A DNA stretch of 64,000 nucleotides from an uncultured Planctomycetia bacterium. Its GTDB lineage: Bacteria; Omnitrophota; Gorgyraeia; Tantalellales; Tantalellaceae. The notes under the pieces were generated by a model that was not told where the DNA came from, ran no database searches, and was given only the letters and a program-made list of their open reading frames with translations. The DNA lies in NCBI GenBank assembly GCA_964421015.1, contig CAYQUS010000003.1, positions 41,269 to 105,268 on the forward strand. Direction: 5' to 3'. The position numbers and the translations under genes were made by a program. Positions 12,001 to 45,560 of the stretch are shown in pieces. How positions within the stretch are numbered: position 1 is the stretch's first letter; every line of letters begins with the position of its first letter.

Positions 12001-15000
12001 TGCCTATACGAAAATTCGTAAGGAACCGGCAACGTGGCATTTTGAGACAAAGGGTGAAATAGTGGAACAATGGCCTTCCCGTGGAGGAGACGATAATAGG
12101 TACGGTCCTTGGGTGGAGGATAGAACTTGGGAAGAAAAAGTTGTCGATAGTTACAAAGATGTTGAATACCCTGTTTTCACTAAGACTGCTGAACTCGTTT
12201 CTAACTCTGCTGAACTCGGGAAAGTCTTCGCCGAAACCAAAGCCAGTCTTGCGGTTAAAAGAGCACGTCAAAATGAATACCAGAAGATGTTTGATGTTTC
12301 AGGAGAAGATGAAAGTTTTAACGCATTAGGCAAAATATATGCGTTTTATGAGTTGTTCCCAGGGGCAGATTTTACTCTCGATAATATTTTCCATATCGAT
12401 GGATTTAGTGGACTCGAGAGCAGAGCCTTATTCTCAAAATTGGCAGGGCAAATTAACGACATTGAAAAGCTAAGAGCCATTGCTGTTCTCGTTCTTATGA
12501 GAGTTGAAGGGATAAATAGAGAACTAGTCGAAACTTTAGCGAATCAGGTTGAAGATATTGAAGACTTATATGTTTTGGAAAGCGTTCTTAGGGAGAATGT
12601 TTCCTTGTTGAGGTCGTCAGAAGTTCCTGTCTACCAGGGAATAACCGAAGAGGTTTATCTAAGAACCGATACAGTGGATGTAAAGCAGCATCTTGACTGG
12701 ATAGAGACAGCGAGTGTTCCAGTGTATGAAACTCGCCAAATCGACGATTTTGTGGGATACCGCACTGTAAACGAGTACGATTTTTCAAAACTTGAAGAAC
12801 TCGCAGCAAATACGGAAACATTGAACAGAGTCTTCGCCGAAACCAAAGTCAGGCTTGCGGATGAGAAAGGGTTACCTGCTGAAGAAGTTACAGCTCAGGC
12901 TCCTCTTACTACAGAAACAACTGGAATAGCGGAAATAGAATACACCTCTGAACAGGTTATAACTGACAAGCTTGCGGAAACCGCTCTCTCTATGGGGTAC
13001 GATTCAACTGTGGTAACAGAGCTTGTTGATAAGACGTTGCAGCGTACAGTAACGTATAACGAAGACGGCACGCCGAATTTCGGAAGGCTTGAGGCTCTTA
13101 TGGAAAACCCCATAGCTTTAGGAAGGGTTTTTGAAGTCTTGTCAGCCGACATCCACCCCATATCATGGCAGACATCGGCATGGGCGGCGGCGTTTTACGG
13201 GGCGCTTTCCGTTATTATAGGAATAGGTTCCGTTTCCGGGCTTTCGCTTGGCGGGAACTTTGTTCCGCTTATGGCCGGAGCTCTTGCTATAGTAGCGTCG
13301 ATATACGCCGTTCAGGCCGCGGATGTTTCTTACGGCGTTCTTGCCGGCGCGCCTTCGGCTCTTATATCGCCTTTTGCTAATGCCCTTCCGGCGGAAGAAG
13401 GCTACATAACATATGTAAGAAGCGGCAGGCTACATGTTAACGCCGAAGAAATGGCTAAGCGGCCCAAGGCGCTTCAGTGGCTGTACTATTCGCACGAATA
13501 TCTGCACCTTAAGGGAGTATATTCTCACGCGGCAGTTTACGGTCTTCAGGGTGTTCTAATGGCCGTTACGGCGGGCCTGGGAGTTATACTTGTTTCCACG
13601 GCCGCGGCAATGAGCCCGGCAGCGGTTTCAGGGGTAGGCATAATGGCCCTCGGGACATATTCGGCTTCGGGCCATGCCGAAACAGTCGGTAAACCCGAAA
13701 AAGTTAATGTTTTAAAGTCAAATAGCGTGCCGAACAGCGTATATAACGGTGTTGTATATAGGTATGATCCGAAAGAGGAGGCGCCTAAAGACGAAGAGTC
13801 TATGATGGCTTATCTTGAGGAAACGATGCTTGACTACGGCAGGCAGGGGATGGAAAGGTACTCAGGAAAGCTGTCCCAGGATAACATCAAGGACGAATTG
13901 ACCCATTTGAACGGTGTCAGGTCCTACATTATGAGCAGCACCGGTGATATGACGGTTGAGTATTTCATGATGATGGAAACATTCGGGAAGATCAAGACTG
14001 CCGAAGGTTCTGACATGCCGGTATATCAGCTGATGAATGTGCTGGCTGATGAGCAGAACTGGAGGGCCAGGGCTAAGATATACGCCAATAACGGTACTTA
14101 CGCCGACTTTAAGCAGATAGTTGACCTTTTCCGTAAAGCCGCGGAACAAATGGCTGAATCTTACAGGATAGATCCGTCGGACAGCGAGCTTGAAATAGAA
14201 AAACTCGCGGTAGTAGTTAGCGAACCCGGTTTTATATCTGAAGTTTCGGGCACTCCGGGCATGGCGGAACTGCTTGAGGGTGCTTTGCCGGATGTGGCAG
14301 AGATTATCAGGCAAGGGTATACGGCGAATTTCGCTTTGCGCAGGTGGCTGGAGACGCCCGGGAACGTCGATCTGACTCTTGCGGAAAAAGTTGTAAACAT
14401 GGTATCGTCCAGCCTTTCTGCGATGCATGACGAGGAGCTGGCAAGGTTCATGGAAGAGACCCTTCCCGGAGGAAAATACGCCGGCCGGCCCGTGATAATA
14501 GTAGCCGATAACTTCCTAGCTAGCGAAGAAGAGATAAGAATGCTTACCGAGAAGTTCGGCATAAAAGCGTATGTTTCGTCTAAGGGCGCCAACGAGCTTA
14601 CCGGTCATTACGCGGTAGTGGCCGGGGCGAGCGGTATGTCTATAGCCGCCGGGCTCGAAGAAAGTGTTCTTGCCGGGATAAACACCGGAGATTCATTGTC
14701 GTTCTTCGTGGAAGAACACGGTGAGGACGCGTATCTTCTTTTTACCAGGGAAGACGGCCGGGATTTCAACGAAGAGGCTAATTCCTGGATGCTCACGAGA
14801 ATGCTTAGCGTTACCGCTCTTCAGGACTACTATGCGGAGAGTTCGTCGGGTGACGTTAAACAGACCATAGACAGGGTAAAGTTCCCTGTATTCGGCAACA
14901 TAAACCTGCCTCTTTCTACGGACAGGGCGGTAGGCATGCTTGACAGCCTTATGGAGTCCGGGGCCGACGGCGTAGGGCTTGTAAGGACAGAGTATATGTA

Positions 15001-17329
15001 CGACGGTGTCTCGGCTCCCACCGAGGCTCAGCAGGTAGAGCTCTATTCCGCTCTTGCTGAAAAAGCCGGCGACAAGATAGTAACTTTCAGGACTTTCGAC
15101 AAAGTGGACGATAAAGAGTGTCCCGCTCTTCCCGTAGAGGACGGCAGACGGAGTTTTGATTATTACAGGACACCTGCCGGGAAAGAAGCTTTCACGGCGC
15201 AGTTAAGGGCGCTGTACAAAGCCGCTTTGAGACATGAAAATATCAGGATAATGTTCCCGATGGTAAAGGACATATCCGACATAGAGTTCATAGCTTCGGT
15301 AGCCAGGGAGAACGGCATGAGTCTCGACCGGGTGAGCCTGGGGATAATGATAGAGACCAGAGAACTTCTGGAAGATGGGAACGGTGATCTTTTCGGAGAG
15401 ACAGGCAGTGTTTCTCCCGTCAATATAAGCGCTCTGGCGCTTAAGGCGATACTGTCTAATCAGGCTGTTCCGATAAGTTTCGTCAGCGTGGGGAGTAACG
15501 ATCTTACCTCTGCCGTAAAAGGAAAACCGAGGACAGATATAACCGATGATGATTTCGACAAGGAGATGCTGGTGGTGCTAGAAGGTATAGCCATTGCCCT
15601 CAGACAGGAATATTACAGGAGGGTAGAGAGCGAAGATGATATGGCTGAACTTGAAGAAAGAGAGCCCAGGGCAATACAGCCTGTAACTATGGGTATATGC
15701 GGAGACGCGGCCAAGTTCGACATAACTTTCCTTTTCAGCCTGTACCTGTACAAGACCCATGGGGTGCTTCTCACACCGAGCGCCGTAAGTTCAGTTATTC
15801 CAAGAAGGAAAGCGCTTATTCCTTTTACCAACGCCGAAGGATGGGTAACGTCTTTCGACCACGGCTGGTGGAATCGTACGGAAGAAGAAATAGCCGGCAT
15901 GGTAAGAGCCAAGGTGGACAAGGTTATAGGCAAGATACGCAAGTCCCCTGGCTATATTGAGATGATAAGAAGAAAAGTCAGCGACAGGGTAGGTATGCGG
16001 AAGATGACCGGGGCTCTGGCGATGGCCGGTTTCGGCGGGGAAGGCCTGAAAGTTTTCGGAGAAAAGGTTTCCGAGCTCATGTACGGCTATGTTCCGGAGC
16101 ATCTTGATTCAGTGCTTCCGGCTATGGCCATACTTATACTTTTGGGCGCGCTTGCCTGGAAAGCTTTCTGGACCGCGGCGGATACTAAGAATGAAGCTTT
16201 GCTGGAAGAACAGCTGACGGAACTTTCCTTAAAGCCTTCCGGCCAGAGGAGATGGCCCTCTATGGTTCATGTTATAGGGGTCCAGACATCTATGACCCAG
16301 GCGGAACTTGATATGGAATTTCCGGGTTTCAAGGCCGGCGGGGTAGACATATTGGCCCTTCCGGAAGGGAAGACAAACGAAGAGAACCTGCTTTTACTCG
16401 AAGCCGCACGAAGAGAGCGCAATACCGTATGGTCAAGCTATGTGGACGCTTCGGCTCTTGAAGCCGCCGGCGGAATATCCAGTCTCGGCAGGGTGGCGCT
16501 TGATATGACGAGAGAAATAGAGAAAAGAGAGACCGAGAAGTTCCTTGAGGAAAATTCTCTTGAAGAAATAGAGTCGCTGCGGTCGGCTCTTGAAGGGATA
16601 CTGAAAGAAATGAATCTCCCGGCCATGCTTCCGGAAATCGGGCTTCTCAGCCTTTATAACCTGAGGATAACCGACAGGGCCAGATCCGGTATGCCAGGAT
16701 GGCTTGACGCGACCACGCAGTCTTACATCGAGCGTGAAGATAAGGAATCTCTCGTTCATGTTACCGTGAGTTCTCTGGCCGAAGTTAAGACGCAGGCCGA
16801 AGCTTTCAGGCTAAGAGATCCCAGGAAACTTAAGCTGAGAGTTACCCTTGCAGTCGGTGACGAAACAAGCGAAGACGAACTTGCGGCTATGAAGACCGGC
16901 AAGGCGGCTCTAATGAAGAGTATGGACGTGGACAAGCTTATAGGCGAGGGCGATCTTGAAATAGTAAGAAGGTCCGACATAAAAGCCGGTCTTACCGACG
17001 CTACAATGGCGGCCATACAGTCCGCCAGGAGCACGGGAGGCGACGTTATAAGCGTAGACAGGGTAGAGGATGCCGGCAACCAGGCTAACCAGAACCTGCC
17101 AAAAGGCGTTCTCGAAATGAGGTACAACCAGTACGCTACTGCCGACGTGTTCGACACGGCGCTTAGGGTGCTCGCAAGAGGCGGAGTGGTAGGAGATATC
17201 GCTTCAGCGATAGGCCTTGATCCGTTGACTAATGGAGTAATTATGTATCTCAGGGAGATCAAACCGGAAGATATGGGTACACTTAAAGCCGAGTTCGAAA
17301 GGTACAGAGAGATACTTACCAGAGCGTAA
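2..17329 (+). CDS. Giant (>=5775 aa, 5' end outside window) polytopic membrane multidomain protein. Beta-rich N-terminal region, acidic Thr/Glu/Lys low-complexity linker, many clustered TM helices, ComEA-like helix-hairpin-helix module, C-terminal PEP-utilizing-enzyme phospho-His-like and PEP/pyruvate-binding TIM-barrel domains
   Basis: Uninterrupted 17.3 kb ORF ending TAA 17327-17329. Translation shows 'INTATLEELQTIPGVGPVLAERILEYRQ..VSGIGEKKLESI' (HhH, nt ~11440-11625). 'GANELTGHYAVVAGASGM' lies at nt ~14585-14640. 'GLVRTEYMYDG..PTEAQQ..IVTFRTFD', 'IMFPMVKD' and 'VSVGSNDLTSAV' mark a PEP-utilizing TIM barrel (nt ~14900-15560). Hydrophobic helix clusters at nt ~6000-7800, 9890-10560, 10980-11860, 13150-13680. 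Followed by a palindromic terminator-like repeat. Confidence 0.8.
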   Translation: METLFKAFHYLFKFRDADLVVKDGMLYAKLRKPYQFSELETLNTGDTIVMSLADGKVRQIRIDTVLSENAVVSEGNLWKEFNYEPFAGKVDLGNISSVPAEGFESGVRSYGAGSEKLTVTEYSRDNWEFLKTSFTFINELGEDSVSFTMAETEDVQGLSDPQKTVWIDFHDTARTTRKYVGELEISPEGAKINPTVTDRPILIEDVTHPEGRHDLLSMKKFGIFDEKNPTEQKFFEMDKDGKMFRGVSLEFSDTFDHGIVVVYERVKDAAPGSDEIMMRKTEYVADGVRDFDEYLREYASSGNVSGLEWISEGVYGIREGLDIQGKKKEIWDTYEYRHMNGEYYTVTEVPGDGTDYGVETKSYIQKGRNVFGREYERSFTTLVRDSKVITEQSIQFLAPGEEYKDETGSQRTDFAGRVQTAVKMRPDEVTDIEVLTGAEKVAPGDKAELTRGAIEIPEASFEGIPEEERFVFRTESKEMRFIEGMPRVVKEETRITDSRGEILYTVTTNYRFAWDKGTMEKESTEILVYDNTADENGENKDEVRKYVVEYSPEYPAGRFMERGRYISRDKFLYLASEGKAVRKILNYVDGSEVEREVDLFRYVDRDHPSIDEVYETERWSDPAEDGGARETAVIRVSSMDKRGVSLGMTASDSRVIFTDNDGKETASVPFPQAEEATFERIESSGEIRSLDGALLGNIDLENGMVNVVFGGDQADGPGKVIVLPEGAYLGRSVVRRPVGLASDGKTVEFETITSSFGIYDITGKPYYKHTTEKYPEAEDKAEAHTIVKYNENDKTMSEWLYVIGVSSDSDKRSAELNNPVVSSRHALTRYHGLKDDFYQIELEEKDRIKRDALSGRYSTEDDYQTSYVYDKNGFASQRDSGTLPLASETKVFDPVTQSMKTIEENVYFYNEETGERFIVDVTGILPAEVDKNDPAAVLKYLDETGQTVTVFRTLMPIEMQFEAEQWRTTVSEKEGKISVNYTDPGASLELLRIKHPDSEHFGGTYITVLLSGKAGAYEVEGVFMGKGVHLFYGVAGKKRVREGEELPKDIVTIDPVTGQVLGVREDVLEGWKETRSVSFAYDKGDETVVLNIPGVMSSDELGIPNPDRGDGVFYLQKKVRMPDGQVAFVIAEFKVKLKEGQTYAEALDELAAKRNSLTLEIDFESAGNSLKDLGTLEYLYFPCHMGDDKAQLYQMKIEMNPDRTIGDVVTLNPMEDFKADTNRGWEFEYKEESAPGLTEISKTGTEISLQDVEILMDIAPAELLPREFSIWGEETMRWVKTPQPEGDVMVEYFKPGQTKAFKVTWEIGENEEAKALVEGALAGLPENSIFGKDADKKIKDVVYTFAKENNITDSALLAQGLERAIEMEKVFEEVLGRESGTLASSVSPESRPAMASSVLYWTGKLSVQKDASTGAVTGFSRIGRSLGNRAIQMKPAVVKAMQDLYTKYGSDAQKEGIAAFTTAGTGEELVVLDMAISLAATDITTDRAMKDPAQVISAADMLFDGESYDRAEQGILSDLRKAAVKEFQGILDGTIAQSLSVTIESFMKGKVLAEAENLVEAIQNKPADADESVEKGIEIWKKVVRTYYEAYGDILFSEFVDNRRKAPNMYAFHAQDLKSKVTEILEEAGMENLASEITPEIKVPEVKPEEAALSISLDEMGLNIRPEALTPKVILSENEDLNGKGAVYFYASNETSEEAPGTRNLAGKTVTVTGKMPYQADPDSPIVIALTDTNGNTMAATATVGEDGNLTAVFEKVPASEDFDGTSVVLMETRFAMASTTPPVWSVMGIMVAYMFASFMFMVVRKVRGYGKLLRLSKAGAELKAKTPIPMTGFIADFIRDLGYAWRSDRSFTGAAFKVFFIGLFNIFRGKPAEKKEETKKVKEEEKTETTATDTAREKASLQPLETTKDAEETAVPAATTEAVEEVAIEPAPVTEEEIQTEVDMELVHLGVKEMAHAIRGWVDDIKVDFRMIGIQQEEAGIFLPFMRSSEIWEFSDYAAKPKYSLSNITRGLSMVGLGLAIYGLAGFGGALTWIYPVALMLILPGFFNWLAVAKVSVPGSIGFVLMHTILPLFGMSHPAISVVFSAIFIALYVAAPFYKYLRAISDPNSYVEKQRGQLETLRSMVWIMQNGDESLQRAADWLRSHGDQGQKLEKEELANIADNKDLNLSSEAILYLKARSVWYSKERGKLGLTRKQVIERLELLARFNKNVLPHIKDLRRWRRSHDVGAGTSWIGAKVPGGELEELPEFSKELESTLKELDELVVSTPNEGSFRKDAPFYLLGAGMAMLAGGIGVIFTTGIVVPIVIGVIAVTVSFMLLVAGLGKIRESEMIMSPGRDMKKLWRDNFRIIYSTSSGHELKALALWKGLQEITAAISRETLVIKAEETLSRNRFVNIVQGSLNKMKTALTNVRDTAIVRGFFDSFHLSRNEEFVRKVHMLFNVVVFVLVISVVLQLATFTGLFAVKELANLVLAGEFLSFSEVFAKPFYVLEIGKAIFTSYELQSPFTAVILAFTQTAVFGTTVIMGLWLALGKFVFYFLGDNARHYPQEKVVTSRRVWLNVGIGAAAAIAFAVIPGGSWLAVIGRAVSAVFVGISVFRFFIMRTASTRFKAIVEQDKLLTKDSPMPRVTALTEAQWDEMKRESFDNFVDTVLSRYNAEEQRVILKANEVGKENLSDMEKMVYERTLGRGAEPSRSKYKNFDRASLEEEYKKLTTENLLNRMSGAGFENLKRALGLDCEDLKLWHIQSEDESIKFIANSIKDNETRKKNFENSRNAIKGLSPDVLRDIIDGDLLERRVVLMYDLLPKFTPWIVVVDGAKETPKLVNYLVGYRYPLQRIRIVFAGENWDNGTDDFVQKGKSNSSIPPQLIFRGMPVREDNLNEVDIKKLPREERKKMLMAWVQANHPYTKPGANTSVLDDSDGTSGIIYDAENTPHPLQPLEFILGVMDGVATVRRLSDKFTKAYASSEIGEEDNAAVSVKKASALLEKTLPEYGRALDEKDISDSLRFNIKQKGILKRQMRYFVKHNLKTLLEITEKDPKLFSTGMLFEYIKEQVKAGRSLLEDKEMRELLNLYIVLCNMPGYGEAATEYIKGTLTKDAFVKELIKGEFRRVNEPKNGQGRLAKITNALEFAGPDKGAGSQGSVAAFMYGEYASWYDPGWSGFMASQDTFKPLGGTTGYFCTEVIEEIDWQDQDVQTKLSFTAEENDIVKQHYVTKNKLLAIGAWDEFQVAEDYMLGFVTWWYGFNIAGFMSLTPENPAGFEAEVGYKFRPKQLSRWIKGYNIGLVVLTENWSNVSELWERKGWWGFFVFLVPTLSSAVNPLLFIAARFITQLWWIFFVPVETIRTFLVNITFMDAGSYIQGMLQATQLDTLLLNFQDSVVWFITENLNYLDWSLGAPIVVLPFALHAYFTLRGIFRGVDNRLGMERILAEHDELLEDAQKADPAVVKEVEDRIKAIKEGSLEEVPGLVSPKPFILAASALIGAFVTIIAMPFIVSSGVTFLAGVGVWVAVSLIISLGVNKLTRWYVDSAVKKKANKTPEEEAAEKEEKSIRAMAVRAGSANLFIAFYHATVYLPGNTMAWSEIISGGRTGYWWRTPRVVGQIAQVKKRQDRKFALGEAKIAEFPKPQKEDKVAEDEFIEAFKEKMTKDELIERDLEHTRLWTRLIYGWGFVGAMLLLVAYNFRMNLRDQFITSIVSPFMSGSAPTTYIYQLASSNPLIALGIVAGSIAMAGLLFAVSRSRGRSAVPEASRQETLTLEPRTEEEVIPETGEVKSEAPVAPKPKVPAVGIGIEVSEEEGALLETFETLEEIQAKVNINTATLEELQTIPGVGPVLAERILEYRQTNGDFESIEDLLKVSGIGEKKLESIREYVDIPLELPAASHAVPISNKVGIPIGSIAMLFGAAILASMSAGAEMTGDALPTKGARLFASISGVEIALVAGVIALLVYGAIKLRNYSKANALKLSYKGFSVPMSIAIPLSKLVRNSEDRAAVMDMINRTAYTKIRKEPATWHFETKGEIVEQWPSRGGDDNRYGPWVEDRTWEEKVVDSYKDVEYPVFTKTAELVSNSAELGKVFAETKASLAVKRARQNEYQKMFDVSGEDESFNALGKIYAFYELFPGADFTLDNIFHIDGFSGLESRALFSKLAGQINDIEKLRAIAVLVLMRVEGINRELVETLANQVEDIEDLYVLESVLRENVSLLRSSEVPVYQGITEEVYLRTDTVDVKQHLDWIETASVPVYETRQIDDFVGYRTVNEYDFSKLEELAANTETLNRVFAETKVRLADEKGLPAEEVTAQAPLTTETTGIAEIEYTSEQVITDKLAETALSMGYDSTVVTELVDKTLQRTVTYNEDGTPNFGRLEALMENPIALGRVFEVLSADIHPISWQTSAWAAAFYGALSVIIGIGSVSGLSLGGNFVPLMAGALAIVASIYAVQAADVSYGVLAGAPSALISPFANALPAEEGYITYVRSGRLHVNAEEMAKRPKALQWLYYSHEYLHLKGVYSHAAVYGLQGVLMAVTAGLGVILVSTAAAMSPAAVSGVGIMALGTYSASGHAETVGKPEKVNVLKSNSVPNSVYNGVVYRYDPKEEAPKDEESMMAYLEETMLDYGRQGMERYSGKLSQDNIKDELTHLNGVRSYIMSSTGDMTVEYFMMMETFGKIKTAEGSDMPVYQLMNVLADEQNWRARAKIYANNGTYADFKQIVDLFRKAAEQMAESYRIDPSDSELEIEKLAVVVSEPGFISEVSGTPGMAELLEGALPDVAEIIRQGYTANFALRRWLETPGNVDLTLAEKVVNMVSSSLSAMHDEELARFMEETLPGGKYAGRPVIIVADNFLASEEEIRMLTEKFGIKAYVSSKGANELTGHYAVVAGASGMSIAAGLEESVLAGINTGDSLSFFVEEHGEDAYLLFTREDGRDFNEEANSWMLTRMLSVTALQDYYAESSSGDVKQTIDRVKFPVFGNINLPLSTDRAVGMLDSLMESGADGVGLVRTEYMYDGVSAPTEAQQVELYSALAEKAGDKIVTFRTFDKVDDKECPALPVEDGRRSFDYYRTPAGKEAFTAQLRALYKAALRHENIRIMFPMVKDISDIEFIASVARENGMSLDRVSLGIMIETRELLEDGNGDLFGETGSVSPVNISALALKAILSNQAVPISFVSVGSNDLTSAVKGKPRTDITDDDFDKEMLVVLEGIAIALRQEYYRRVESEDDMAELEEREPRAIQPVTMGICGDAAKFDITFLFSLYLYKTHGVLLTPSAVSSVIPRRKALIPFTNAEGWVTSFDHGWWNRTEEEIAGMVRAKVDKVIGKIRKSPGYIEMIRRKVSDRVGMRKMTGALAMAGFGGEGLKVFGEKVSELMYGYVPEHLDSVLPAMAILILLGALAWKAFWTAADTKNEALLEEQLTELSLKPSGQRRWPSMVHVIGVQTSMTQAELDMEFPGFKAGGVDILALPEGKTNEENLLLLEAARRERNTVWSSYVDASALEAAGGISSLGRVALDMTREIEKRETEKFLEENSLEEIESLRSALEGILKEMNLPAMLPEIGLLSLYNLRITDRARSGMPGWLDATTQSYIEREDKESLVHVTVSSLAEVKTQAEAFRLRDPRKLKLRVTLAVGDETSEDELAAMKTGKAALMKSMDVDKLIGEGDLEIVRRSDIKAGLTDATMAAIQSARSTGGDVISVDRVEDAGNQANQNLPKGVLEMRYNQYATADVFDTALRVLARGGVVGDIASAIGLDPLTNGVIMYLREIKPEDMGTLKAEFERYREILTRA

Positions 17330-17340: not shown

Positions 17341-17383
17341 ACACATTAGTGCCAGGCACCTATGGTGCCTGGCACTAATGTGT
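17341..17383. repeat. 43-nt perfect palindrome (REP-like / terminator-like), copy 1, 12 nt after the ORF1 stop
   Basis: acacattagtgccaggcacc-tat-ggtgcctggcactaatgtgt, with 20-bp arms. Confidence 0.9.
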
Positions 17384-17643
17384 GATAAGCGTCATTCTGA
17401 TGCCCCGATAGGGGCTGAAGAATCTAGAGGCATTAGATCCTTCACTTCGTTCAGGATGACGGAGAGAAGTCAGCTTAAAGAAGCCACCTTGCGCGCGGCA
17501 AGTATTTCCCGGCCGCCTCAGGTGGTTTCGTGGTCTCTGGGATAGAAAAAGGTTTTCAAAAAATGGATCCTGTTGAATATCAGGTACTTGTTGATCTCAA
17601 TAAAGCGCTTTTACGAGTATTGCAGGCAGCTTAATTAACGAAT

Positions 17644-17685
17644 ACACATTGGTGCCAGGCACCATAGGTGCCTGGCACCAATGTG
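17644..17685. repeat. Palindrome copy 2 (variant, loop inverted: ..caccATAggtg..)
   Basis: acacattggtgccaggcacc-ata-ggtgcctggcaccaatgtg. Shares 5' flank cgaatac with copy 1 and 3' flank aaaaagttag with copy 3. Confidence 0.85.
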
Positions 17686-17734
17686 ATAAAAAGTTAGATT
17701 CCATGTTAGTTATGAAAAATCTTGTTATTTTTCA

Positions 17735-17801: not shown

Positions 17802-20800
17802 ATGCATAAAAATTCACCGTTTTTGCGGTTGGTGGCAGTATTTTTATCTTTGGTCTTTTTTCTTCAGGAAACAGGAGTAGCGGCTGCGGCTACGCAAGTC
17901 CCCGGCGCGTCTGTTCCAACGGTAAAAGTGTCTCCCGAGGCGTTTACCGAACCTGAAATAAAACTTCCTCTTTCCGTTGCTCAGACCGAGAGCTGTTTTT
18001 TCGGTTGCGGCGGAGAAACCATAATCAATATACAGGACGACCATTCGTCTCTTTCCAGGCAGTATTCAATAGTGAACGTTCTGGGAGAGCTTTCATCTAA
18101 CTACAATATCAACGTTGTGGCTATCGAAGGAGGAAGGGGGTATATAGACACCTCTCTACTTAAAAGCCTTCCCGACCGGACCGTAAAAGAGAAAACCGCT
18201 GATTATCTCATGAAGCAAGGGACGATATCGGCCGGCGAGTTTTTCTCGGTAATGTCAGAGGGAGATGTGGCTCTCTACGGCGCCGAAGAAAATGAGCTTT
18301 ACCAGAAGAATCTGGAGCAATTTCGGGCGATATTTTTGAATAATGCCGGAAATAGAAGGATACTGTCGGTACTCATCGAAGAGCTGAAACGAAAAGAGAA
18401 GAGAGTATATTCCGAAGATCTTTGGAGGTTCGTGTATCGCTCGCGCCTTCACGCGGAGGGCCGGCTGAGCCTGGAATCATATTGGGATTTTCTTGTTAAT
18501 GAGCTGGGCCTTGCCGGGGGAAAGATCTCGGATTATCCCGTAATATCAAGTTTTGTAGGGACAGTGGAACTTGAGCGTGAAATAGATTTCGAGAAAGCCA
18601 CAGCGGAGAGAAAACAGCTTATAGACAGGATAATGGAGACGTCTCCTGCTGAAGCGGCAGAGGAACTTGTGGCGAGATCTGTAGATTTTGAGAAAGGAAA
18701 GGTCGATGAAGCGGGGTACCACGAATGGCTCCTGAAGTTTGCCGTTTCCCGGGGAGAGGAACTTTCCGGATATGCCGAGCTTGTTAAATTTTCCAGCTAC
18801 TCTTCATCCTACAGGGAACTTGATGTAACCGCCCTCCATAGGGAACTTGCAACCGCCGAGAAAGAAATTTTTAACAGTCTTTGCGCCGCAAAAGAAGAGT
18901 ATGATCTTTTTCAGGCGGTATCTTCAGCGGAGAAGCTCAAACGGCTTTTCGAGATACGGCTTTCGGCCGATGACGTTGACTCTCTCAAGGAGCTGGCGGA
19001 GGGGCTTTCAGGTAAAAGCATGACGGCGTGGTTGGGCGAGGACGCCGCTGGAACGGCTTCCGGCAAGCTCAGGAAGATCCTTCCTGGGCTTGATAAGCTG
19101 GCGTCAGACGCCAAAGAGGCCATGAAGTTCTACGCGGTGGCCAGAGAGCGCGAGAAGAAAATGATAGCCAACACGGTAAGGGCCATGCGTAACGAGGGTA
19201 AAAGGGCCGCGGCCCTTATATCAGGAGGATACCACTCGTCGGGGCTATCCGGAATGATGAGGGAAAAAGGGCTGAGCTACCTGGTCCTTATGCCGTCCGC
19301 GCAGGGAAATGTGGACAGGTCTTACGTGGCGGTCCTTACAAGGAAAACCGGCCCGTACACGGAACTTGTTAAGAGCGGCTCTTATGAACTGGCGCTTGAA
19401 GCCTATTTCGATTCGGCGGATCTGGATTCATTCGAAAAGATGCTGGCCTTTATAGCGGCGGAGAACGTTATGTCCGGCAAGACACCCATGGACATAGAGA
19501 GGGAGAAAAAGGAGTGGATAGCCCGGCTTAAGGCTGAGCGTGAAACAATGCCCGAGAGAAGGGCCAGACTTTCCGAGCTTGTGGATATAGAGGCTCTTGA
19601 AGAAAGGCTTTCAAGCATTAAGGTGCTTCAGTCATCCGGGGATGAGTGCGAAGTTTCCATAGCCGGAAGGCTTTACCTTGTGGCGGGGGGGGAGGTCTCT
19701 CTTCTGGAAAAGGCCGCCAGGATGCCCGAAAAAAAGACAGATATGAACGTTTTTCTGCCGGCTCTGAAAAAAACTTACAAATTGCCAGGCCAGGCCGCTT
19801 TTTATTCTTCCGGAAGCCTGCTGGGAGAGATAGCCCTGAACTGGGCCGCGACAAGGGATTTCAAGAACGCCGCCGATTCCTTAAGGAAAACGGCGAGAGC
19901 CCGGAAAAAGAACCCCAGCATACTTGAGGCGGCTCTATGGAACATAAATGAGGCCGCCAAGATGATGAAAATGGCTCCTGAGATAAAGGAGATAATAGAT
20001 TCCCCCGAAAAAGTCACGGAAGTAAATTTCACGGTGGGGCTTGATGACGGCACGAGCGTGGAGATATGGGGTTTCAGGGCCTTGCATAACGGATCGCGCG
20101 GAGCGGGAAAGGGCGGGCTCAGGTGGCTTGTGGCTAAGGATGAAACTCCCGAAGACGCTATGAAGGCCGCTGTCGGGCTGGCTACTCTTATGAGCATAAA
20201 AAATTCCGGCGTAGGTATACCTTACGGCGGCGGTAAAGGCGATATTTTTGTTCCGGACAGGAAATATACCGACAGTGATAAAGCCCGGATAGTAAGAGCC
20301 TTCTCACGGGAGCTTACCCTGAAAGAAGCGGTAGGAACTTTTCAGGATGTTCCCGCGCCCGATAAAGGGACCGACGCTCGCATGATGGCCTGGTTCCTTG
20401 ACGAGCATATCCGCACACTCCTTGAGATGGGAAAGATACACGATAAGCTTCTCCAGGAAGAGCTGAGAAAAAATCTGGCGGATACCGATCCCGGTGAGCT
20501 TGTTCAGTCCGACGAGAAAACACCTTACCTGGATATTTACATCGATGTTCTTGAGAACGATGACACGGGCGTTTTGAGAGGAGTGGAGCTGGGAGTTATA
20601 ACCGGTAAGCCTTTGAGGAAGGGAAAGAAGGTTCAGCTTGGGTCTCTCGGCCGCACAAAAGCCACGGGGTTCGGCGGGTTCATAGCCTTCAGGTCAGTTC
20701 TGGAAAAGTTCTCCGCCATGAAAGATATGGACGGCGATGTAATAGCCGGAACACTTAACCCCTCAGTGAGGCGCGTACTCAAAAAGAATATAAGCGACAT

Positions 20801-23800
20801 GACGGTTGCGGTACAGGGAACGGGCAATGTAGGAGAATATAACGCGTGGGAATTTTTCAGAGCCGGCGCCAGAGTGACAATGCTGGAAGACTGGCATGAA
20901 GGGACGAATTGGACGCTGTACGGCGATAAAGGCATCGACCTCGAAAAGCTTAACTCGGCTTTGGAGCGGCTTCCCGACGGCAGATGGGCGCCCCTTGCCA
21001 CGCTGCCGGAGAAATTTCTAAGAGAGAACGGTTACGAGCTTAAAAAAGGGACAAGCGAGTTCTGGGATACTTATAGTGACGTAAAGGTTCCTGCGGCAAC
21101 GGAGAACCAGATAACCTATTCCAACGCCGAGGATATTAACTGCGCCATAGTGCTGGAACTTGCCAATAATCCCACTACTCCCGAGGCGGACGCTATACTC
21201 GCGAAAAGAGGCCTTCTTGTTATCCCGGATGTGGTCGCTAACGCGGGGGGCGTAACAGTTTCTTATTTTGAGTGGCTGCAGAACATAGAGGGGAGATACT
21301 GGAGCGACATAAGTGTCGACATGATGCTTGAAGAAAGGATGGAGACGGAGATCAGGGATGTTATGGCCGTGGCTCAGAGGTTTTCCTCGGAGTTTCGGGA
21401 AGAGGGCGGTTCCGCCGGGCGCAATGTTTTCAGGCAGGCGGCGTATATTCTGAGCCTGGCCAGGATAGCCGACGCCGAGCTCTCGAGAAAACCTGAGCTG
21501 ATGGTACAGCTGACGGGTGACAACAGGGAACCTTACAGGTTCCGCGGAAGTCTGGGGCTTGTGCCCGAGACGGTAGAGGCTCTTAATGATGTTTCTTCCG
21601 ACGTGGAAAAATTCAGGGACCTTGCGGATTTTTGCGAGGCGCGCCATGAGAGAGAGATAAGAGGCATAGTCGCGGACGTGGAAAAGAAGTTCGCCGGCGC
21701 TAAAGGCGGGTTCGTTCTGGTCTCGGGTCCGGTTACAAGCGGAAAGATGGCCGTATCCGACAGAATAACCGCGGGGCTCATCGAGAACGGGTTAAAAGCC
21801 AGGAAAATAGATATCGACGAAATGATATTCCCCAAAGAAAGGTTCTGGAGGCAGAGCGGGCTTGATGAAAGCAGGGTGCATGAACTCGCTATAGCAGAGA
21901 TAACGAATATTCTTGAAGATCTTATGTCGCGCGTTAGCTCGGAGATATTTGTTCTGGAAGGAAGTTACGTGCTGGACGAGGCGTTCCTCGACAGGGAAAA
22001 GGGCCTGCTGAAAAACGAGAATACTTACGGGATATTCACCAACATGGCCCCGGCAATGAAAATGTCGGGTAACGTTCCCCTTACATCTCTGGACATGAGG
22101 CTCATACGGCACATACTTACTTTTCAGAGGGTTTTCGGCTCTTCCCCGATAGACATAATAAGAGAATGGCCGTTGACGAGGGAAAACAATCTTAAGTACG
22201 TGTACCCGTCGTGGAAGAACGCCGACACTACGTTCAACAGCTACCTGCCGTATGAATTAGCCGTTCTTAAAAGCCCTGTTACAAGGGCCCTGCGCGACGC
22301 CATGGAAAACGCCTCTAACGACCTCGAGAAGTCCACAATAGAAAGGCTTCTTGGCATACTTTCCGGAGTTGAAGACGCGCCCGGGACAGCTGGCCTTGAC
22401 GTGAATTCGGTAATAAGGCAGTTCATAGGCGCTCCCTCGTACCTTGATGAGATGGAAGCGGATGATGTGTTGTCGATGTACCGAGGCGAATACGTGGAGA
22501 ACCACGCCAGGAGGGTCACGGATATCGGCGCCGTCCTGGCCGAAGAGATGGGAATAAGGAGAACCGACCCCGGGCTTTTTAACGATATCCTCTCGGCCTG
22601 CGCCGCCCATGATTTCGGAAGCCCCGGATCTCCCATAGACCCGGCTGATTTCGCGCGTATACGGACAAGCCTGGCTTCAAGGGGAGTAGATGTGCCAGAA
22701 AAAACATCCAGGGACGAAAACTGGCATGCCTCTCTTTTTGAGCGTTTCAGCGCGGCCAAGCCTGGGGAATTTTCCGCTGAAGAGGTTGATCTTGCTCTTG
22801 ATATGTTCCAGGGGCCGGACTCCCTGAGGCGCCTGGCCATGCGCGGCGCCGTGCCCTCCAGGCCGGTCAGGACCGCTATACTTTTTCATCACCACGCCGG
22901 AGAGTTGGAGACTTATCTTTCCGGAAAAGACTGGCCGGAGAAGGAAAAGGAAAGGACGCGCTTGATCCTTTCGGTGCTTGTAGCCGCGGATGTCATAGAG
23001 AACGGCATGAATCTGTTCAAAAAAATATTTTTCAGGAACACCTACGTCGTTGAGACCCCGGATGAGACAATGAGATTCCTGGACCCGGCAAGAAGCGGTA
23101 TCCCAAGGACAGAAGCGATAGAGGCGTACAAACGAATTGTCGCTGAAAGCCCCGAAAAGCTCCGTGGTATAAGCGAAAGGGCGTTCGATATATCACCTCA
23201 GGAAGAAGAATTCCTTCTAAAGGCCGAAAAGGTCTTGATAGATAGAGGGGAGATTCACGGAGCCGGGCCCGAGAGAGGAGGGACGACGGCCGTAATAAAA
23301 ACCCTGAAAAATATTTCGGGTAAAAAAACGCCTTTCGGGTATTATGCCGTTAGCGTGGCTCCCAGGGTGGAAGAAAGACTTTTCTTTCTTGTTCCGGCAG
23401 TTCTCGGTTTCGCGCTTGACGTTGCGTTTTCGGGAGGCGGGGTTATAACACTTTCATCAATGGTAACAGCCAGGGCGCTTTTTCTGGTTTCGCACGGCAA
23501 GTTTGCTTTTTCAGGGTTTTTAACGAGAGGCCACGCGCCCTCGAGGGTAGCTATAGCCGGGGTTTTAGGTGTTCTCCCTCTTGCCGCCGTTTCCTGGCTG
23601 GGCCTTCCTTTGTTCCTGGCGCTCGCCGCGGGCGGAGTACTGCTGCCGGTTTCATATTTTTCCGTAAAAAGGTATCACTCCTTCATGAACAATTTGGCGC
23701 TACGGAGCGGGAATCTTCCCGCTGTTATGGGGCATTCTGGCGACATCTTTCTTCTGGGCGACGCAGACGCCGATAACATAATAAAAGGCATAGCTTCACA

Positions 23801-26800
23801 TCATGTGCTTGTAAAGGCGGCATCAACCGAGGGGATAACTCCCGCTGAATATTCCAGATGGGTAGATGTAGACGATGAGGCTTCTCTGCTGAGAGGATTC
23901 AGGGCCCTGGCCGCGATGGGAGCCATGGAGAACGGCATAGAAGCGGCCGACGGAGCCAAGGCTTACCGGATCACTTCCTCCGGCATGGAACTATTGAAGG
24001 CCACCTGGAAAAATAATCTTAAAGAGTGGCTTGAGGCCATGTCGTCCCTGCCCGATAATTCGCCCGAAAAATCAAGGCTTTTCCAGGAGCTCAGAGAAAG
24101 CCGGTTTCTTGGTTTTACCAGAGGCAAAGAGTATCCGGCTGAGAGACTTGAAGTGCTGAAAGAGAACCGGACCAGGGTGCTGGACGCCATATTTATAGTC
24201 CTTACAGGCATGCTTGACGGGTCGGTTTCTTACAAAAGGAGCGATATACTTTTTTCCACCATGTACATTACAGCTCTTCTGGACATCGCCGAAACCAGCG
24301 CCGATGAGGCGTTCCTGGAAGATATACTGGAGAGGCTGATGGGGCTTCCCAACGCCACGGACGCCGAAGCCCAGGGGGAGATGCAAAAGTTTTTCATGCA
24401 TACTATATCTTCTTATCCCGGTAAAGCCAAGACGCTTGTTTTTCACCTTATGGCTGGTTTGCAGGAGAACGGGAATGTTATCAAGGAAACGGACAATCCT
24501 CTTTTTGATCTTATGGACCTTCTGCATAAAGCCGGCGGCGGCGACTTCTACTATTTTCTCCGAAGAGTATCGGGGATGTATTTCATGGACAATTCGGGCC
24601 AGGTAAACGTGGGGGTCGACCACCCCTTGAGGGTAAGGACCCGAAGCGGCAGTTACGGGCTTGATATAGACGGAGTTGTAAGGGACTCCATACACAATAA
24701 TCTCGGTGTTTATGTTCTTGGGCTTCTTGAGCGGATGCTGGAATACTACCGCACCGGGAACGTTGAGATCCTGGGGGACAAGGATTACGAGGTAGACGCT
24801 TTCAGGAACGATGCCGTGAAGGGGCTCGATGCCTGCTTTCCGGAAGAAGGAACAATAGACGTCAGAAGGAACAGGCCCTTGTACCCGGATACATGGCACG
24901 AAGCGGCCGTTCGGATATTTCACCATCTTGAGGGACGTCTGGGAGAAGATGCCGGAGCCGAAGGCGCAACGAGATATGAAAAGCTGAGGAATATATCCGA
25001 CGAAGGTCTGCAGAAGATCTATGACGCGGTAAACGAGGAGCTCGGCCCGGGGTTCCCGAAGATGGAGGTCAATGATACCGGGTACGGGTTCTCGGGATAT
25101 TTTTACGCGTACAGGGAACTTAGCCGCAGGTACAAGAGAGCGGATTCCGAAGAAGACCTTAAAGGTAACCTGAGGAGGCTCTCAGCGGTTTACCGGAACG
25201 TCAGGAATATAATCGGCCCCAGCGGCATTGCCGACGCCGGGAAAGTAGAAGGGGAAGCGTATTCCCCGGAAAAGGAGCTTTCCAGGATACTCGAGGTAAA
25301 GTCGGCTATAAGGGGAAAAATACTCGATATCGAGGCCGAGCCTTACGACAGGACCGCCGTGGAGGAAATATTTACCGAGGATTGGGGCGTGGATTACACT
25401 GGTAACGCCTACGGCGGAGCCTGGGTTAAGGATGAGCTTTTGGGGCTCTACATGGCCGATCACGGTGTCTCTCTGCTCTTGGCCAGGGTTATTGAAAAAA
25501 TGGAAAGTACCCTGGTGAAAGGTATAAATCAGGACAATATTGAAGAGGCTCTGAGATACCTGAAAGTCCTGGCCGAGATAAATAATGTTAACGGTCTCAT
25601 GCCGAGGTCTTTTGTCGATAAAGTCGATACCCTTATTGAGGAGAAGGCGATTGACGCTACGGTCGCAAGGGACCTTGTGAGCCTTCTTGAGGACGAGTAC
25701 ATAGAGAACGAGCGGTATATTACCCACAATATGAAGGTGTACATAGAGAGGATACTCGATATTAAAAAAGTGTTCGGAACGGAAGCCCGCAACAGCGAGA
25801 TCAATAGGCGCATATCTTCCTTATTAAGGTCCGAGAGAGAATACTACGCTCTTTTCAGCCTTCTAAGAAGGATAGGAGTTTATCTTGAGGGGATGGAAGG
25901 TGTTCTGGGAACGGAAAGGGCGGGTGTGGAAGAGCTGCCTTACACGCTATTCGGGCCGGGAACGGAAAAAGATGTTCTCGACAGCGCTCTGGGCCAGGGC
26001 AGGTACAGGCTTTCCGGCAAGGGGATAGAGCTTGTGAGGATGGCCAGGGAGGGGCTACCGGTGCCGGAGGGAATAATAGTCCCGGCTACGTTCGACGTTA
26101 CCCGCACGGTCAACTCTGCCGTTTCTGCCGTGTCCGCTTGGCCGCACGGGGATGAGGTTTTGGGTTCTTCCGAGCGGCCACTTGTTGTGTCGGTGCGTTC
26201 CGGAGGGTATTTTTCAATGCCGGGCCAGCTCCCGACAATAGTTAACGTAGGGCTTTCGAGAAGCACCATAGATGGATTCATGAAAGTTCTTTCGGAAAAA
26301 CACGGACTAGGCGAAGACGAGGCCGCGTGGACGGCATGGGATTCCTATGCCAGGTTCCTGAGAAGTTACGCCGGCGAGGTCATGAAAATAAGCGAGGAAG
26401 AATTTATCCGGGAAGACGAGAGAGTTTTTTCTCAGTACGGTGTTTCAGGCGGGATTGAACTGGGATGGGAAGATAAACGCGCTTTAGCGGAAAGGTACGA
26501 GAATCTTATAGAGAGACTTCGCCCGGGAGAGTTTCCCGCTTCTCCCGAAGAACAGTTCGAAAAAAGCGTTGAGGCGGTCAAGTCCGCCTGGGAAGGTACG
26601 GAAAAATACAGGGAGAACATCAGGTTGAACGGGCACTGGCCGGGTACCGCCGTTATAGTGCAAAAGATGGTCTATGGCAACATCAGAAGATCTTCAGGTG
26701 CCGGCGTAATAAATTCAAGGAACGTTAACGTCAGGGAAACCGGAATAAAGGGTGATTTTCTTTTCTCTGCCCAGGGAGAAGACATAGCCCAGCACCGCAA

Positions 26801-30197: not shown

Positions 30198-30389
30198 TGG
30201 GGACATTGGTGTCTCCTCTGTATTAGATCCTTCACTTCGTTCAGGATGACAAGGGGTGATGTGCAGGGATGACGAAGTGAAGAGGTGGAGAAATGACGAG
30301 AAGTGTAGGGAAGGCCAGGGTTAAAAAGCAGCAAATTATAAGGTTTCAGTAGACTTTAGTTAAGATACAAAAAATTCAGAATTGATTAG

Positions 30390-39687: not shown

Positions 39688-39730
39688 ACACATTAGTGCC
39701 AGGCACCTATGGTGCCTGGCACTAATGTGT
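39688..39730. repeat. Palindrome copy 3, identical to copy 1, 10 nt after the ORF3 stop
   Basis: acacattagtgccaggcacctatggtgcctggcactaatgtgt followed by aaaaaagttag. Confidence 0.9.
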
Positions 39731-44529: not shown

Positions 44530-44574
44530 GCGCTCCGCCCCTTCACAGGTCCTGAGGAAAAGGCATAAGTCGTG

Positions 44575-44603
44575 TTGACACCGTTATATAAATCCGTTAA
44601 AAT
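44575..44603 (+). promoter_or_regulatory. Sigma70-type promoter of the ABC-permease/glycosidase operon
   Basis: TTGACA (44575-44580), 17-nt spacer, TAAAAT (44598-44603). Confidence 0.55.
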
Positions 44604-44651
44604 AATAGGGCTAACTATCATACATTTGAAAAGCGTAAAAGAAGGTAGTTG

Positions 44652-45560
44652 ATGGCCGGTAATAATTTTTTGAAGAAGCTCAATCAGCAGAAGATGTCCT
44701 ATCTTTTTATAGCGGTTCCATTTACGCTTTTTTTCGTATTCCAGGTGGCTCCGGTCGCGATATCTTTTCTGTGGTCCTTCACTGAGTACAATGTCATACA
44801 ACCACCCAAATTCATAGGTCTCAGCAATTACAGGCAGCTTCTTTTCAGCGATCCTCTTTTTTGGAAGGCTCTCAAGAATACGGCGATATATGTGGCGGGT
44901 GTTGTGCCTCTGGGGGTTTCTCTTTCCCTTCTTCTTGCAGTGGCCATAGACCAGAAGATCAAGTTCAAGAACTTTTTTAAATCGGTGTTCTTTCTGCCCA
45001 CAGTCACGGCCATAGTGGCTGTTTCGGTCATATGGAAATGGCTTTATGCGGGGGAGAAGTACGGTCTTTTGAATTTTTTTCTGATAAAGCTCGGGTTTGA
45101 ACCTTTGGACTGGCTGACAAGCCCGGAATGGATACTGCCCGCCATAATGATAATGTCCATATGGGCCGGGCTTGGGTACAGCATGATACTGTTTCTTGCC
45201 GGTCTGCAGACTATTCCACACTCGATGTACGAGGCGGCCGAGATAGACGGAGCCGGGTTCTGGCACAGGTTTGGTCACATAACGCTGCCGCTTCTAAGGC
45301 CCACTATAGTTTTCGTTTCCATAATGAGCTTTATCTCCAGTTTTCAGGTTTTTGAACAGGTGTACATAATGACGGGAGGACAGGGCGGGGTAGGTGGGGT
45401 GCTCAATTCCGCGCTCACGATCGTTTCATATCTTTACGACAAAGGTTTTGTGAAATTTCAGATGGGCTACGCTTCGGCTATCGCTTATGTCATCTTCGCG
45501 GTGGTTTTTGCCGTCACGGTGATGAACAAACGTTTTATGAGAGCTAACTTTGACTACTGA
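44652..45560 (+). CDS. ABC sugar transporter permease (MalF/UgpA-type, binding-protein-dependent inner-membrane component)
   Basis: EAA-like motif 'EAAEIDGAGFWHRFGHITLPLLRPT' with 6 predicted TM helices. RBS gaagg. The ORF track begins at TTG 44649 but the adjacent ATG 44652 is preferred. Promoter TTGACA-N17-TAAAAT at 44575-44603. Confidence 0.8.
   Translation: MAGNNFLKKLNQQKMSYLFIAVPFTLFFVFQVAPVAISFLWSFTEYNVIQPPKFIGLSNYRQLLFSDPLFWKALKNTAIYVAGVVPLGVSLSLLLAVAIDQKIKFKNFFKSVFFLPTVTAIVAVSVIWKWLYAGEKYGLLNFFLIKLGFEPLDWLTSPEWILPAIMIMSIWAGLGYSMILFLAGLQTIPHSMYEAAEIDGAGFWHRFGHITLPLLRPTIVFVSIMSFISSFQVFEQVYIMTGGQGGVGGVLNSALTIVSYLYDKGFVKFQMGYASAIAYVIFAVVFAVTVMNKRFMRANFDY

Follow-up and report, generated by a model that had tools for sequence, protein, structure and literature searches.

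Within the 64,000-nucleotide stretch of Omnitrophota DNA analyzed here (hereafter the window: positions 41,269 to 105,268 of the forward strand of contig CAYQUS010000003.1, assembly GCA_964421015.1), three very long open reading frames (ORFs), which we call A, B and C, follow one another in tandem on the plus strand, and the second of them holds a glutamate dehydrogenase (GDH) domain behind a signal-peptide-like leader. We are nearly certain that residues ~722-1238 of protein B are a genuine, glutamate-specific, NAD(P)-type GDH of the small hexameric ELFV class, and that this domain opens a two-domain cassette (aa 693-1551), with a kinase-like domain as its second half, that recurs in long multi-enzyme proteins of Omnitrophota. 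Cytoplasm-type enzymes behind signal peptides are the central unexplained feature of the giant proteins of these bacteria. The features on which this finding rests are:

17802..30197, + strand: giant gene B, a single ORF of 4,131 aa, host of the GDH domain
19965..21515, + strand: GDH domain, aa ~722-1238, with Pfam, NCBIfam and PDB matches
21609..22466, + strand: P-loop nucleoside-kinase-like domain (PRK/uridine-kinase fold), aa 1270-1555

Two Pfam families account for most of the GDH domain: ELFV_dehydrog_N (PF02812) at aa 735-868 (nt 20004-20405; E 3.2e-26, 92.0 bits against a cut-off of 25.3) and ELFV_dehydrog (PF00208) at aa 947-1227 (nt 20640-21482; E 5.9e-50, 170.6 bits against a cut-off of 23.4). 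Between them lies a lineage-specific insertion of ~80 residues (nt 20406-20639), and the closest solved relative, the Thermotoga maritima GDH 2tmg (E 1.2e-59), aligns in two blocks that flank it. The top NCBIfam models are archaeal and halobacterial GDHs (GdhA/GdhB) at 234 bits, far under their equivalog cut-off of 750. A sequence-only reading of this DNA had described a complete GDH domain with all hallmark motifs in order, and the Pfam matches, the 2tmg alignment and the motif positions confirm that description: GAGKGGLRW (767-775), GGGKGD (809-814), PAPDKGT (851-857), GTGNVG (1006-1011), ANNPTT (1121-1126), VANAGG (1145-1150) and VSYFEW (1153-1158). The extent it proposed, 19990-21330 (aa 730-1176), falls correctly on the GDH domain but omits the last 50-60 residues.

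That reading staked its case on the catalytic Lys, the catalytic Asp and the glycine motif for NAD(P) binding, and none of these has been lost. The catalytic Lys is K812 in GGGKGD and the catalytic Asp is D854 in PAPDKGT, and both are invariant across our conservation alignment of 258 GDH domains, 36 of them embedded in long proteins and 222 from short ones. GTGNVG (G1006-G1011) is the GxGxxG dinucleotide loop of the Rossmann fold. From alignment with solved GDHs, and in Clostridium symbiosum numbering, we take K770 to be K89, K800 to be K113, K812 to be the catalytic K125, D854 to be D165 and S1154 to be S380. K89 and S380 are the Lys and Ser that bind the substrate gamma-carboxylate, and the presence of their equivalents K770 and S1154 in B therefore points to specificity for glutamate rather than for Leu, Phe or Val. 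All 36 embedded copies keep K770, G771, G772, R774, K800, K812, D854, N1122, N1147 and S1154; the GxGNVG loop is likewise retained in 36 of 36, with only Gly-to-Ala or Gly-to-Ser changes at two of its glycines. An Asp in place of the usual Gly after GGGKG, as in B, marks 14 of the 36 embedded copies and none of the 222 short GDHs. The GDH of B is thus a complete, apparently active enzyme, and the conservation indicates that the embedded GDH stays under selection for catalysis in Omnitrophota long proteins.

It is conceivable that the fold is put to a non-catalytic use, as a sensor of glutamate/2-oxoglutarate or NAD(P), or as a hexamerization hub joining six giant chains. Small GDHs are hexamers, and the kinase-like domain next door lacks the Walker-A Ser/Thr, so that degenerate, regulatory use does occur within the cassette. 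However, the joint conservation of catalytic residues, substrate-binding residues and dinucleotide motif in 36 divergent copies is the pattern of an enzyme and not of a protein that only binds its ligand, and we regard a non-catalytic use as very improbable. The amino-acid-sensing role raised in the sequence-only reading fares no better: nothing favors sensing over catalysis, every catalytic residue being kept in 36 of 36 embedded copies.

What that reading missed is that the GDH is one half of a GDH plus kinase-like cassette, and that the arrangement is recurrent rather than a one-off. The two top word-index matches to the GDH region are 800-aa proteins, P0001 and P0002, and B aa 693-1551 is colinear with the full length of P0001 (34% identity, E 6e-131), insertion and C-terminal P-loop domain included. 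For the P-loop domain the match is to a Thermosipho 'nucleoside kinase', P0283, over its C-terminal 290 residues (PF00485; E 3e-12 database-wide, 3e-22 pairwise). An AlphaFold2 model built from ten family members has a predicted local distance difference test score of 89.9, and Foldseek places it with adenylate kinase (2e-4) and UCK2 (8e-4, TM-score 0.56), and also with pantothenate kinase and zeta toxin. PF00485 is matched directly by one of ten aligned family members (8.8e-4), and not by B itself. The Walker A of B, GPVTSGKM, keeps the Lys but lacks the Ser/Thr of the canonical GxxxxGK[ST]; in 34 of 40 cassette-family members that position holds M, I, Q, A or P instead. A Walker A so degenerate makes a nucleotide-binding, regulatory role likelier than kinase activity, and the domain is probably a pseudo-kinase rather than an active kinase.

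A word-index search with the kinase-like domain gave a single match; finding the embedded family took an exhaustive HMMER search in which B aa 693-1551 was compared with 1.84 billion representatives. The top eleven matches share 46-54% identity with B, all in proteins of 1,113-6,804 aa; there are about 25 more long carriers, of up to 7,823 aa, and the start of the full cassette ranges between residues 55 and 3,526. Carriers that have a name at NCBI are listed under Candidatus Omnitrophota, either as 'Glu/Leu/Phe/Val dehydrogenase dimerization domain-containing protein' or as 'HEAT repeat' proteins. The kinase-like domain also served as query against GTDB genomes, one for each species. At all 16 GDH-positive loci checked the GDH lies directly upstream of it, in frames of 865 to >6,899 aa; nine of these loci are labeled Omnitrophota, two 'uncultured Planctomycetia' and five 'uncultured bacterium', and none is labeled as a group with the stand-alone kinase. 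At the three Bacilli/Kiritimatiellae loci checked the kinase stands without a GDH. The N-terminal 700 aa of B have 13 homologs, all from Omnitrophota metagenome-assembled genomes (MAGs) where the source names them, which places the window in an Omnitrophota genome. Apart from the Logan fragment and contigs noted below, the public matches come from other species, the best being 48-54% identical. The cassette exists as a stand-alone 800-aa protein in Verrucomicrobiae, and in Omnitrophota it is built into many long multi-enzyme proteins at varying positions. Its context, called highly atypical in the sequence-only reading, is indeed unusual for biology at large, but it is normal for Omnitrophota long proteins.

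The GDH of B and those of 11 other giant proteins form one clade in all 60 neighbor-joining (NJ) bootstrap replicates, so that it is no housekeeping gdhA of recent capture but a member of a lineage that lives in these architectures. The wider grouping is weak: strict monophyly of the 34 cassette GDHs, P0001 and P0002 included, is seen in one BLOSUM62 NJ tree but in 14 of 60 bootstraps, and a grouping with at most eight outsiders in 49 of 60. The comparison with stand-alone GDHs suggested in the sequence-only reading thus sets B firmly within a 12-member giant-protein clade and leaves the outer boundary of the 34-member cassette group loose. A further possibility is that an assembly chimera or a sequencing error has joined an ordinary gdh to a neighboring ORF. 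We found no support for such an artefact and give it almost no credence: the frame runs for 12.4 kb without a stop codon, the same fusion recurs in independently assembled genomes and metagenomes, a 227-aa fragment (P0145) in another public assembly is 100% identical to B, and genes of the window are present on two short Logan contigs from two separate runs.

The start codon of B is confirmed by the N-terminal alignment with nine Omnitrophota homologs, and GGAG lies 4-8 nt 5' of the ATG. From its N terminus the protein comprises a leader, an N-module of the ChaN/TIKI type, the GDH plus kinase-like cassette, an HD-like region, a cluster of four helices, the ATP-grasp and phospho-His domains of pyruvate phosphate dikinase (PPDK), and a conserved C-terminal domain that is common to its homologs. 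The remaining features of B and its two neighbors are as follows:

17802..17891, + strand: Sec-type signal-peptide-like leader, aa 1-30
17967..19706, + strand: N-module, aa ~56-635, a ChaN/TraB/erythromycin-esterase (TIKI-type) fold with a large helical insert
22497..22637, + strand: weak HD-domain match, aa 1566-1612, with AAHDFG at aa 1601 (Pfam HD E 0.029, under the gathering score)
23370..23693, + strand: internal hydrophobic cluster, aa 1857-1964, about four helices, with Kyte-Doolittle (KD) peaks of 1.98, 1.48 and 2.10
25977..27419, + strand: PPDK N-terminal ATP-grasp and phospho-His swivel domains, aa 2726-3206, catalytic His motif GGRLSHAASIAR
2..17329, + strand: giant gene A, >5,775 aa, its 5' end beyond the window; many transmembrane (TM) segments, a ComEA-like helix-hairpin-helix domain, PEP-utilizers_C
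30547..39678, + strand: giant gene C, 3,043 aa; leader and N-module as in B; phosphoglucomutase (PGM) domains I-III at aa 1639-2076

The PPDK region of B is supported by Pfam PPDK_N (2.5e-12), PEP-utilizers (5.2e-12) and TIGR01828 (1e-66 over aa 2736-3055). A Pfam search of B in six sub-segments left the N-module, the helix cluster, the stretch aa 1965-2740 and the final 930 aa without a match. The HD match is a lead only.

The leader was read by inspection and TM segments were called with a simple KD hydropathy scan in 19-residue windows. B does begin, as the sequence-only reading had it, with what looks like a signal peptide: a basic n-region (MHKNSPFLR), an h-region (LVAVFLSLVFFL) and a c-region (QETGVAAAA, followed by TQ, an AAA-T site), with a hydrophobic core of 12 residues and a KD peak of 1.94 at aa 10-28. 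An AlphaFold2 model of the N terminus shows an isolated helix at aa 5-29 and then a disordered linker at aa 30-55. The Sec type I layout, with a basic n-region, a hydrophobic core of 7-15 residues and small residues at -1 and -3, is seen in B and about 28 homologs. The position of the leader is conserved in all homologs of the N-terminal region, and small-x-small sites (VWA, AWA, LWA, ALA, ACA, VTA) occur in all N-module homologs and nearly all cassette carriers. P0151, the one long carrier that seemed leaderless, proves to be P0284 with its gene call cut short, and P0284 itself begins with a lipobox leader. Directly behind the leader, a short motif is conserved as xLQVP or TLAP and reads ATQVP in B. 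The N-terminal helix is unlikely to be an encapsulation peptide of a bacterial microcompartment, a reading that we rejected because the helix is uniformly hydrophobic and not amphipathic.

The N-module that follows has the fold of ChaN and TraB (exported), of Tiki, and of the toxin effector domains HopBA1 and RRSP, and some of its homologs carry HEAT repeats. In the family alignment E162 and H478 do not vary and H81 hardly varies, which makes them candidates for the conserved His/Glu active-site motifs.

Past the leader, no 19-residue window exceeds KD 1.07 in aa 31-788, and none reaches 1.6 before aa 1858. With no hydrophobic segment between them, the GDH should share its membrane side with the residue that directly follows the leader. 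At least 12 homologs also run from leader to GDH without an intervening hydrophobic segment. The explanation offered in the literature, that a helix has been overlooked, therefore does not hold for this family. Nor does hydropathy support the cytoplasmic loop in a complex topology that the sequence-only reading had offered as one option, as the scan finds no window of KD >=1.1 in aa 31-788 and none >=1.6 in aa 31-1857.

The amino acid composition offers a second clue. Cys makes up 0.10% of A, 0.16% of C and 0.41% of B, together 28 of 12,949 residues (0.22%), and some carriers have as few as two to seven Cys in 4,000-7,800 residues (0.04-0.12%). The 17 ordinary proteins of the window mostly have 0.7-1.7%, and the stand-alone PGM (41683-44529), at 0.95%, contrasts with the PGM domains embedded in C.

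Taken jointly, these observations lead us to favor, at about even confidence, a reading in which the leader is a working Sec signal and the first ~1,830 residues of B, GDH included, are exported and act outside the cytoplasm of the producer. Sec would thread this part through the cytoplasmic membrane, where the internal helix cluster would hold it. The GDH would then interconvert glutamate plus NAD(P)+ and 2-oxoglutarate plus NH4+ plus NAD(P)H outside the producing cell. To our knowledge the periplasm holds no NAD(P) pool, so that an exported GDH is sensible only where the cytosol of a prey or host is accessible. Omnitrophota have been reported as predators or epibionts, and B, with its neighbors A and C, may be an exported multi-enzyme protein that processes prey-derived metabolites. 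If the polypeptide is cut, its TIKI-fold and CPBP-like parts would be candidate proteases.

Several observations weigh against export. The cargo calls for NAD(P) (the GDH), ATP (the kinase-like domain and PPDK) and phosphoenolpyruvate (PEP), and we know of no pool of NAD(P)- or ATP-type cofactors outside the cytoplasm. Sec exports unfolded chains without Fe-S clusters, and related carriers hold what we read as radical-SAM-type CxxxCxxC and histidine-kinase-like ATPase motifs. The ordinary secreted proteins of the window are not Cys-poor, so the exclusion of Cys from the giants may reflect something besides export. In two homologs, P0147 and P0157, the stretch between the cassette and a cell-wall hydrolase domain holds three strong hydrophobic helices (KD 1.8-2.4); the hydrolase is recognized by Pfam (Hydrolase_2) in P0147 only and by sequence resemblance in P0157. 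Because a cell-wall hydrolase is expected outside, three helices would put the GDH inside. The helix cluster of B itself has three K/R-rich segments, the N flank, a central loop (KFAFSGFLTRGHAPSR) and the C flank (KRYH..R), that are all on the flank side, with two short uncharged turns, and by the positive-inside rule both large flanks of the cluster would be cytoplasmic. Finally, P0157 has an internal Tat/lipobox-like signal (SRRSFLKG...LLGC) after its N-module, which makes sense only if the N-module is cytoplasmic.

An alternative is that B is tethered to the membrane but cytoplasmic. The N-terminal segment would then only anchor or target the protein, and the cargo (GDH cassette, HD and PPDK domains) would lie on the cytoplasmic face, as a membrane-bound multi-enzyme scaffold with A and C. 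There NAD(P), ATP and PEP are available, as is generally known, and if the cluster has four helices the recognizable nucleotide-dependent domains of B are all on one side of it, the side that the K/R pattern places inside. An N-module inside reconciles all the signals of P0157: the Tat/lipobox signal internal, a beta-sandwich outside, the GDH inside and the hydrolase outside. The cassette also occurs without a leader in P0001, P0002, P0156 and P0160, and West-Roberts et al. (10.1101/2023.11.21.568195) doubt extracellular calls for glycolytic domains. However, a basic n-region, an h-region of 10-14 residues and a conserved small-x-small site mark a cleaved Sec signal rather than an N-out anchor, and an N-tail that carries positive charge blocks its own translocation. 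The leader is kept in nearly all carriers, no hydrophobic segment is present to bring the chain back to the cytoplasm ahead of the GDH, and the giants exclude Cys. We therefore consider a cytoplasmic face a serious alternative that is somewhat improbable.

As a parity test we counted the hydrophobic segments that precede the GDH in each of about 40 carriers, and the counts were both odd and even; together with the contradictory signals in P0147 and P0157, this means that parity by hydropathy scan cannot decide sidedness. The sequence-only reading had left the choice between inside and outside, and the evidence we find falls on both sides. For the membrane side of the cassette we give export even weight, the cytoplasmic face a lesser but substantial one, and non-catalytic and other uses a small remainder.

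Homologous giants also contain internal signal-peptide-like segments, among them SLRRGAIASVFAIAFLGLKESAWA, a lipobox LLLLVSLSPLASC and a Tat-like SRRSFLKGILLFFGLGGLFSLLGC (P0147 aa 1870-1990, P0157 aa 655-685). Such segments give the impression that entire genes for pre-proteins were joined into a single ORF together with their signal sequences.

It is also possible that the ORF is translated once as a polyprotein and then cut, by the TIKI N-module, a CPBP-like module or a host protease, to free an ~800-aa GDH plus kinase-like enzyme. This would modify either localization and is compatible with both, rather than competing with them. The boundaries of the B cassette (aa 693-1551) match the full length of the stand-alone P0001, the cassette moves between architectures as a unit, the fold of the N-module is shared with the Tiki, TraB and RRSP proteases, and the internal signal-peptide-like and lipobox-like segments in homologs point the same way. 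Cleavage of giant proteins has been proposed by West-Roberts et al. (10.1101/2023.11.21.568195). Within the helix cluster of B we see FLVSH (FxxxH), HSFMN (HxxxN) and EERLFF, the last without an Arg in the register of EExxxR, and PF02517 gave no match at E <= 1. The likeness of these motifs to those of the CPBP/Abi intramembrane proteases is a tentative one, and because the homology is unproven we dropped the idea of orienting the cluster by the topology of Rce1. On balance we think processing of this kind unlikely.

Beyond B, the broader proposal that follows from export is that Omnitrophota export NAD(P)-, ATP- and PEP-dependent enzymes as cargo of Sec-targeted giants, 'metabolic effector' polyproteins that act in or on the cytosol of prey. 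We put this forward tentatively, as a possibility that we would sooner doubt than believe. The chassis of such proteins would consist of a signal peptide, a short post-signal motif, often a TIKI N-module, a variable enzyme cargo and a conserved Ala-terminated C-terminal domain.

The two ends of this proposed chassis can be seen elsewhere. The N terminus of C (window 30547-30900) has the layout of B, a signal-peptide-like segment and then a ChaN/TIKI N-module (IVHIQDAHCNFEAQ...ISVEGAEGTVDT), and a leader like those of B and C heads other Omnitrophota long proteins with different cargo (P0147, P0153, P0157, P0161, P0166, P0167 and P0170). At the other end, A finishes in ...RYREILTRA (17297-17329), B in ...YREEVLIKA (30150-30194) and C in ...RLKVMWSA (39640-39675). 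A terminal Ala (xSA, xAA, xKA, xRA or xFA) closes 23 of 35 long proteins (A, B, C and 32 carriers) as against 17 of 231 short GDHs, and in most carriers a strand-Pro-acidic-RY...L motif precedes it. The tail resembles a conserved C-terminal sorting, assembly or degradation signal. A common leader and C-terminal tail suggest a dedicated sorting or assembly route, so far undescribed.

Other observations concern the neighbors of B. The domains of PPDK are divided between two giants, the PEP/pyruvate TIM-barrel domain being in A and the ATP-grasp and phospho-His domains in B. The A domain (PEP-utilizers_C, the third PPDK domain) lies near the C terminus, at window 14860-15700 (aa ~4953-5240), with the catalytic motifs RTEYM, GSNDL and CGDAA. 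For an active enzyme to form, the two giants would have to come together on one side of the membrane. Farther upstream in A, at aa ~3800-3875 (window 12000-12200), a ComEA-like helix-hairpin-helix DNA-binding domain (HHH_3, E 1e-23) stands between TM segments.

The intergenic DNA carries repeats. A palindrome with a near-perfect 21-bp stem (ACACATTrGTGCCAGGCACC-TAT/ATA-GGTGCCTGGCACyAATGTGT) occurs in three copies, at 17341-17385, 12 nt past the stop of A; at 17644-17690, upstream of B; and at 39688-39730, 18 nt past the stop of C. By chance not one copy would be expected. The transcribed palindrome has a folding energy of -40 kcal/mol (z = -8.3), and it resembles a terminator or REP-type element bracketing the giant genes. 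A second short repeat, TTAGATCCTTCACTTCGTTCAGGATGAC, is found past A (~17433-17461) and past B (~30223-30250). Downstream of the giants, window 41683-53366 is an ordinary-looking locus for mannan/mannose utilization. It encodes a second, stand-alone PGM/PMM of 948 aa, a pair of ABC sugar permeases, two GH113 mannanases, one of which carries an F5/8 type C domain, two CBM proteins that bind mannan, a ROK protein and a solute-binding protein.

The cassette offers a handle on the puzzle of these giants. The enzyme has ~860 residues and is easily assayed by spectrophotometry, a leaderless stand-alone relative can serve as control, and in at least a dozen divergent proteins nothing hydrophobic separates it from the leader. 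Its location and activity would decide between membrane-tethered cytoplasmic metabolons and exported metabolic machinery for predation. The carrier proteins have already been deposited and automatically annotated at NCBI, and the class of giant proteins has been described in preprints. New here are the definition and distribution of the GDH plus pseudo-kinase cassette, the finding that no hidden helix precedes it, the leader and tail chassis, and the exclusion of cysteine as a clue. We found no mention of GDH cargo in 10.1101/2023.11.21.568195, in 10.64898/2026.06.07.730766, in one supplement or in a search of a literature library.

Among known systems, the small hexameric GDHs (Thermotoga maritima 2tmg, Pyrococcus 1gtm; PF02812 and PF00208) have in common with B the two-domain fold, as judged by sequence, the catalytic Lys and Asp, the glutamate-binding Lys and Ser, and GxGxxG. 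They are free, cytoplasmic proteins of ~415 aa, whereas the GDH of B has the ~80-residue insertion, is fused to a kinase-like domain inside a 4,131-aa leader-bearing protein, and is just 33-35% identical to them. P0001, from the Verrucomicrobiae MAG GCA_028687435.1, and P0002 are colinear with B over the whole cassette, with the insertion and a degenerate Walker A (GKQ, as against GKM in B). Unlike B, they are stand-alone, without leader or TM segment, and lie among ordinary cytoplasmic genes, at 34-39% identity. The Thermosipho P0283, a stand-alone nucleoside kinase of the Thermotogae/Bacillota (PF00485), shares with B the P-loop kinase fold and 28% identity over 290 residues, up to a common ..IRQFIG end. 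P0283 has a canonical GKT Walker A, in place of which GK[M/I/Q/A/P] is found in B and in most other members of the cassette family, and the stand-alone nucleoside kinases have no GDH upstream, unlike the cassette. The MARTX-type multi-effector toxins are an analogy only: they use type I secretion without an N-terminal signal peptide and have glycine-rich repeats and a cysteine protease domain, none of which is seen in B, and there is no homology past one fold match.

The last comparison is with the giant proteins of Omnitrophota themselves. West-Roberts et al. (10.1101/2023.11.21.568195) described 'Archaeovorins' with PGM/PMM, glycolytic and PPDK domains that were predicted to be extracellular, a prediction that they doubted while proposing cleavage. 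A 2026 preprint (10.64898/2026.06.07.730766) described 'multi-enzyme metabolic clusters': among 916 long proteins, 39% combined a signal peptide with TM segments and 9% had a signal peptide only, and DeepTMHMM had the metabolic content facing outward, which is the same topological reading as the export model. Pfam finds no SecA_DEAD, HEAT, C39 or S8 in B, and SecA_DEAD and HEAT, said to be common in Archaeovorins, are not among the Pfam hits of A or among those of C listed at E <= 0.001. Those studies set their thresholds at >=10,000 aa (10.64898/2026.06.07.730766) and catalogued genes of >90 kb (10.1101/2023.11.21.568195), so that at 4,131 aa B is under both, and 'giant' is relative; its neighbor A exceeds 5,775 aa. 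What B shares with this class is its origin in Omnitrophota, a signal peptide and/or TM helices, PGM/PMM and PPDK-type metabolic domains, and the paradox of inside and outside. With its overlapping domain types, B looks like a small member of the Omnitrophota giant multi-enzyme class.

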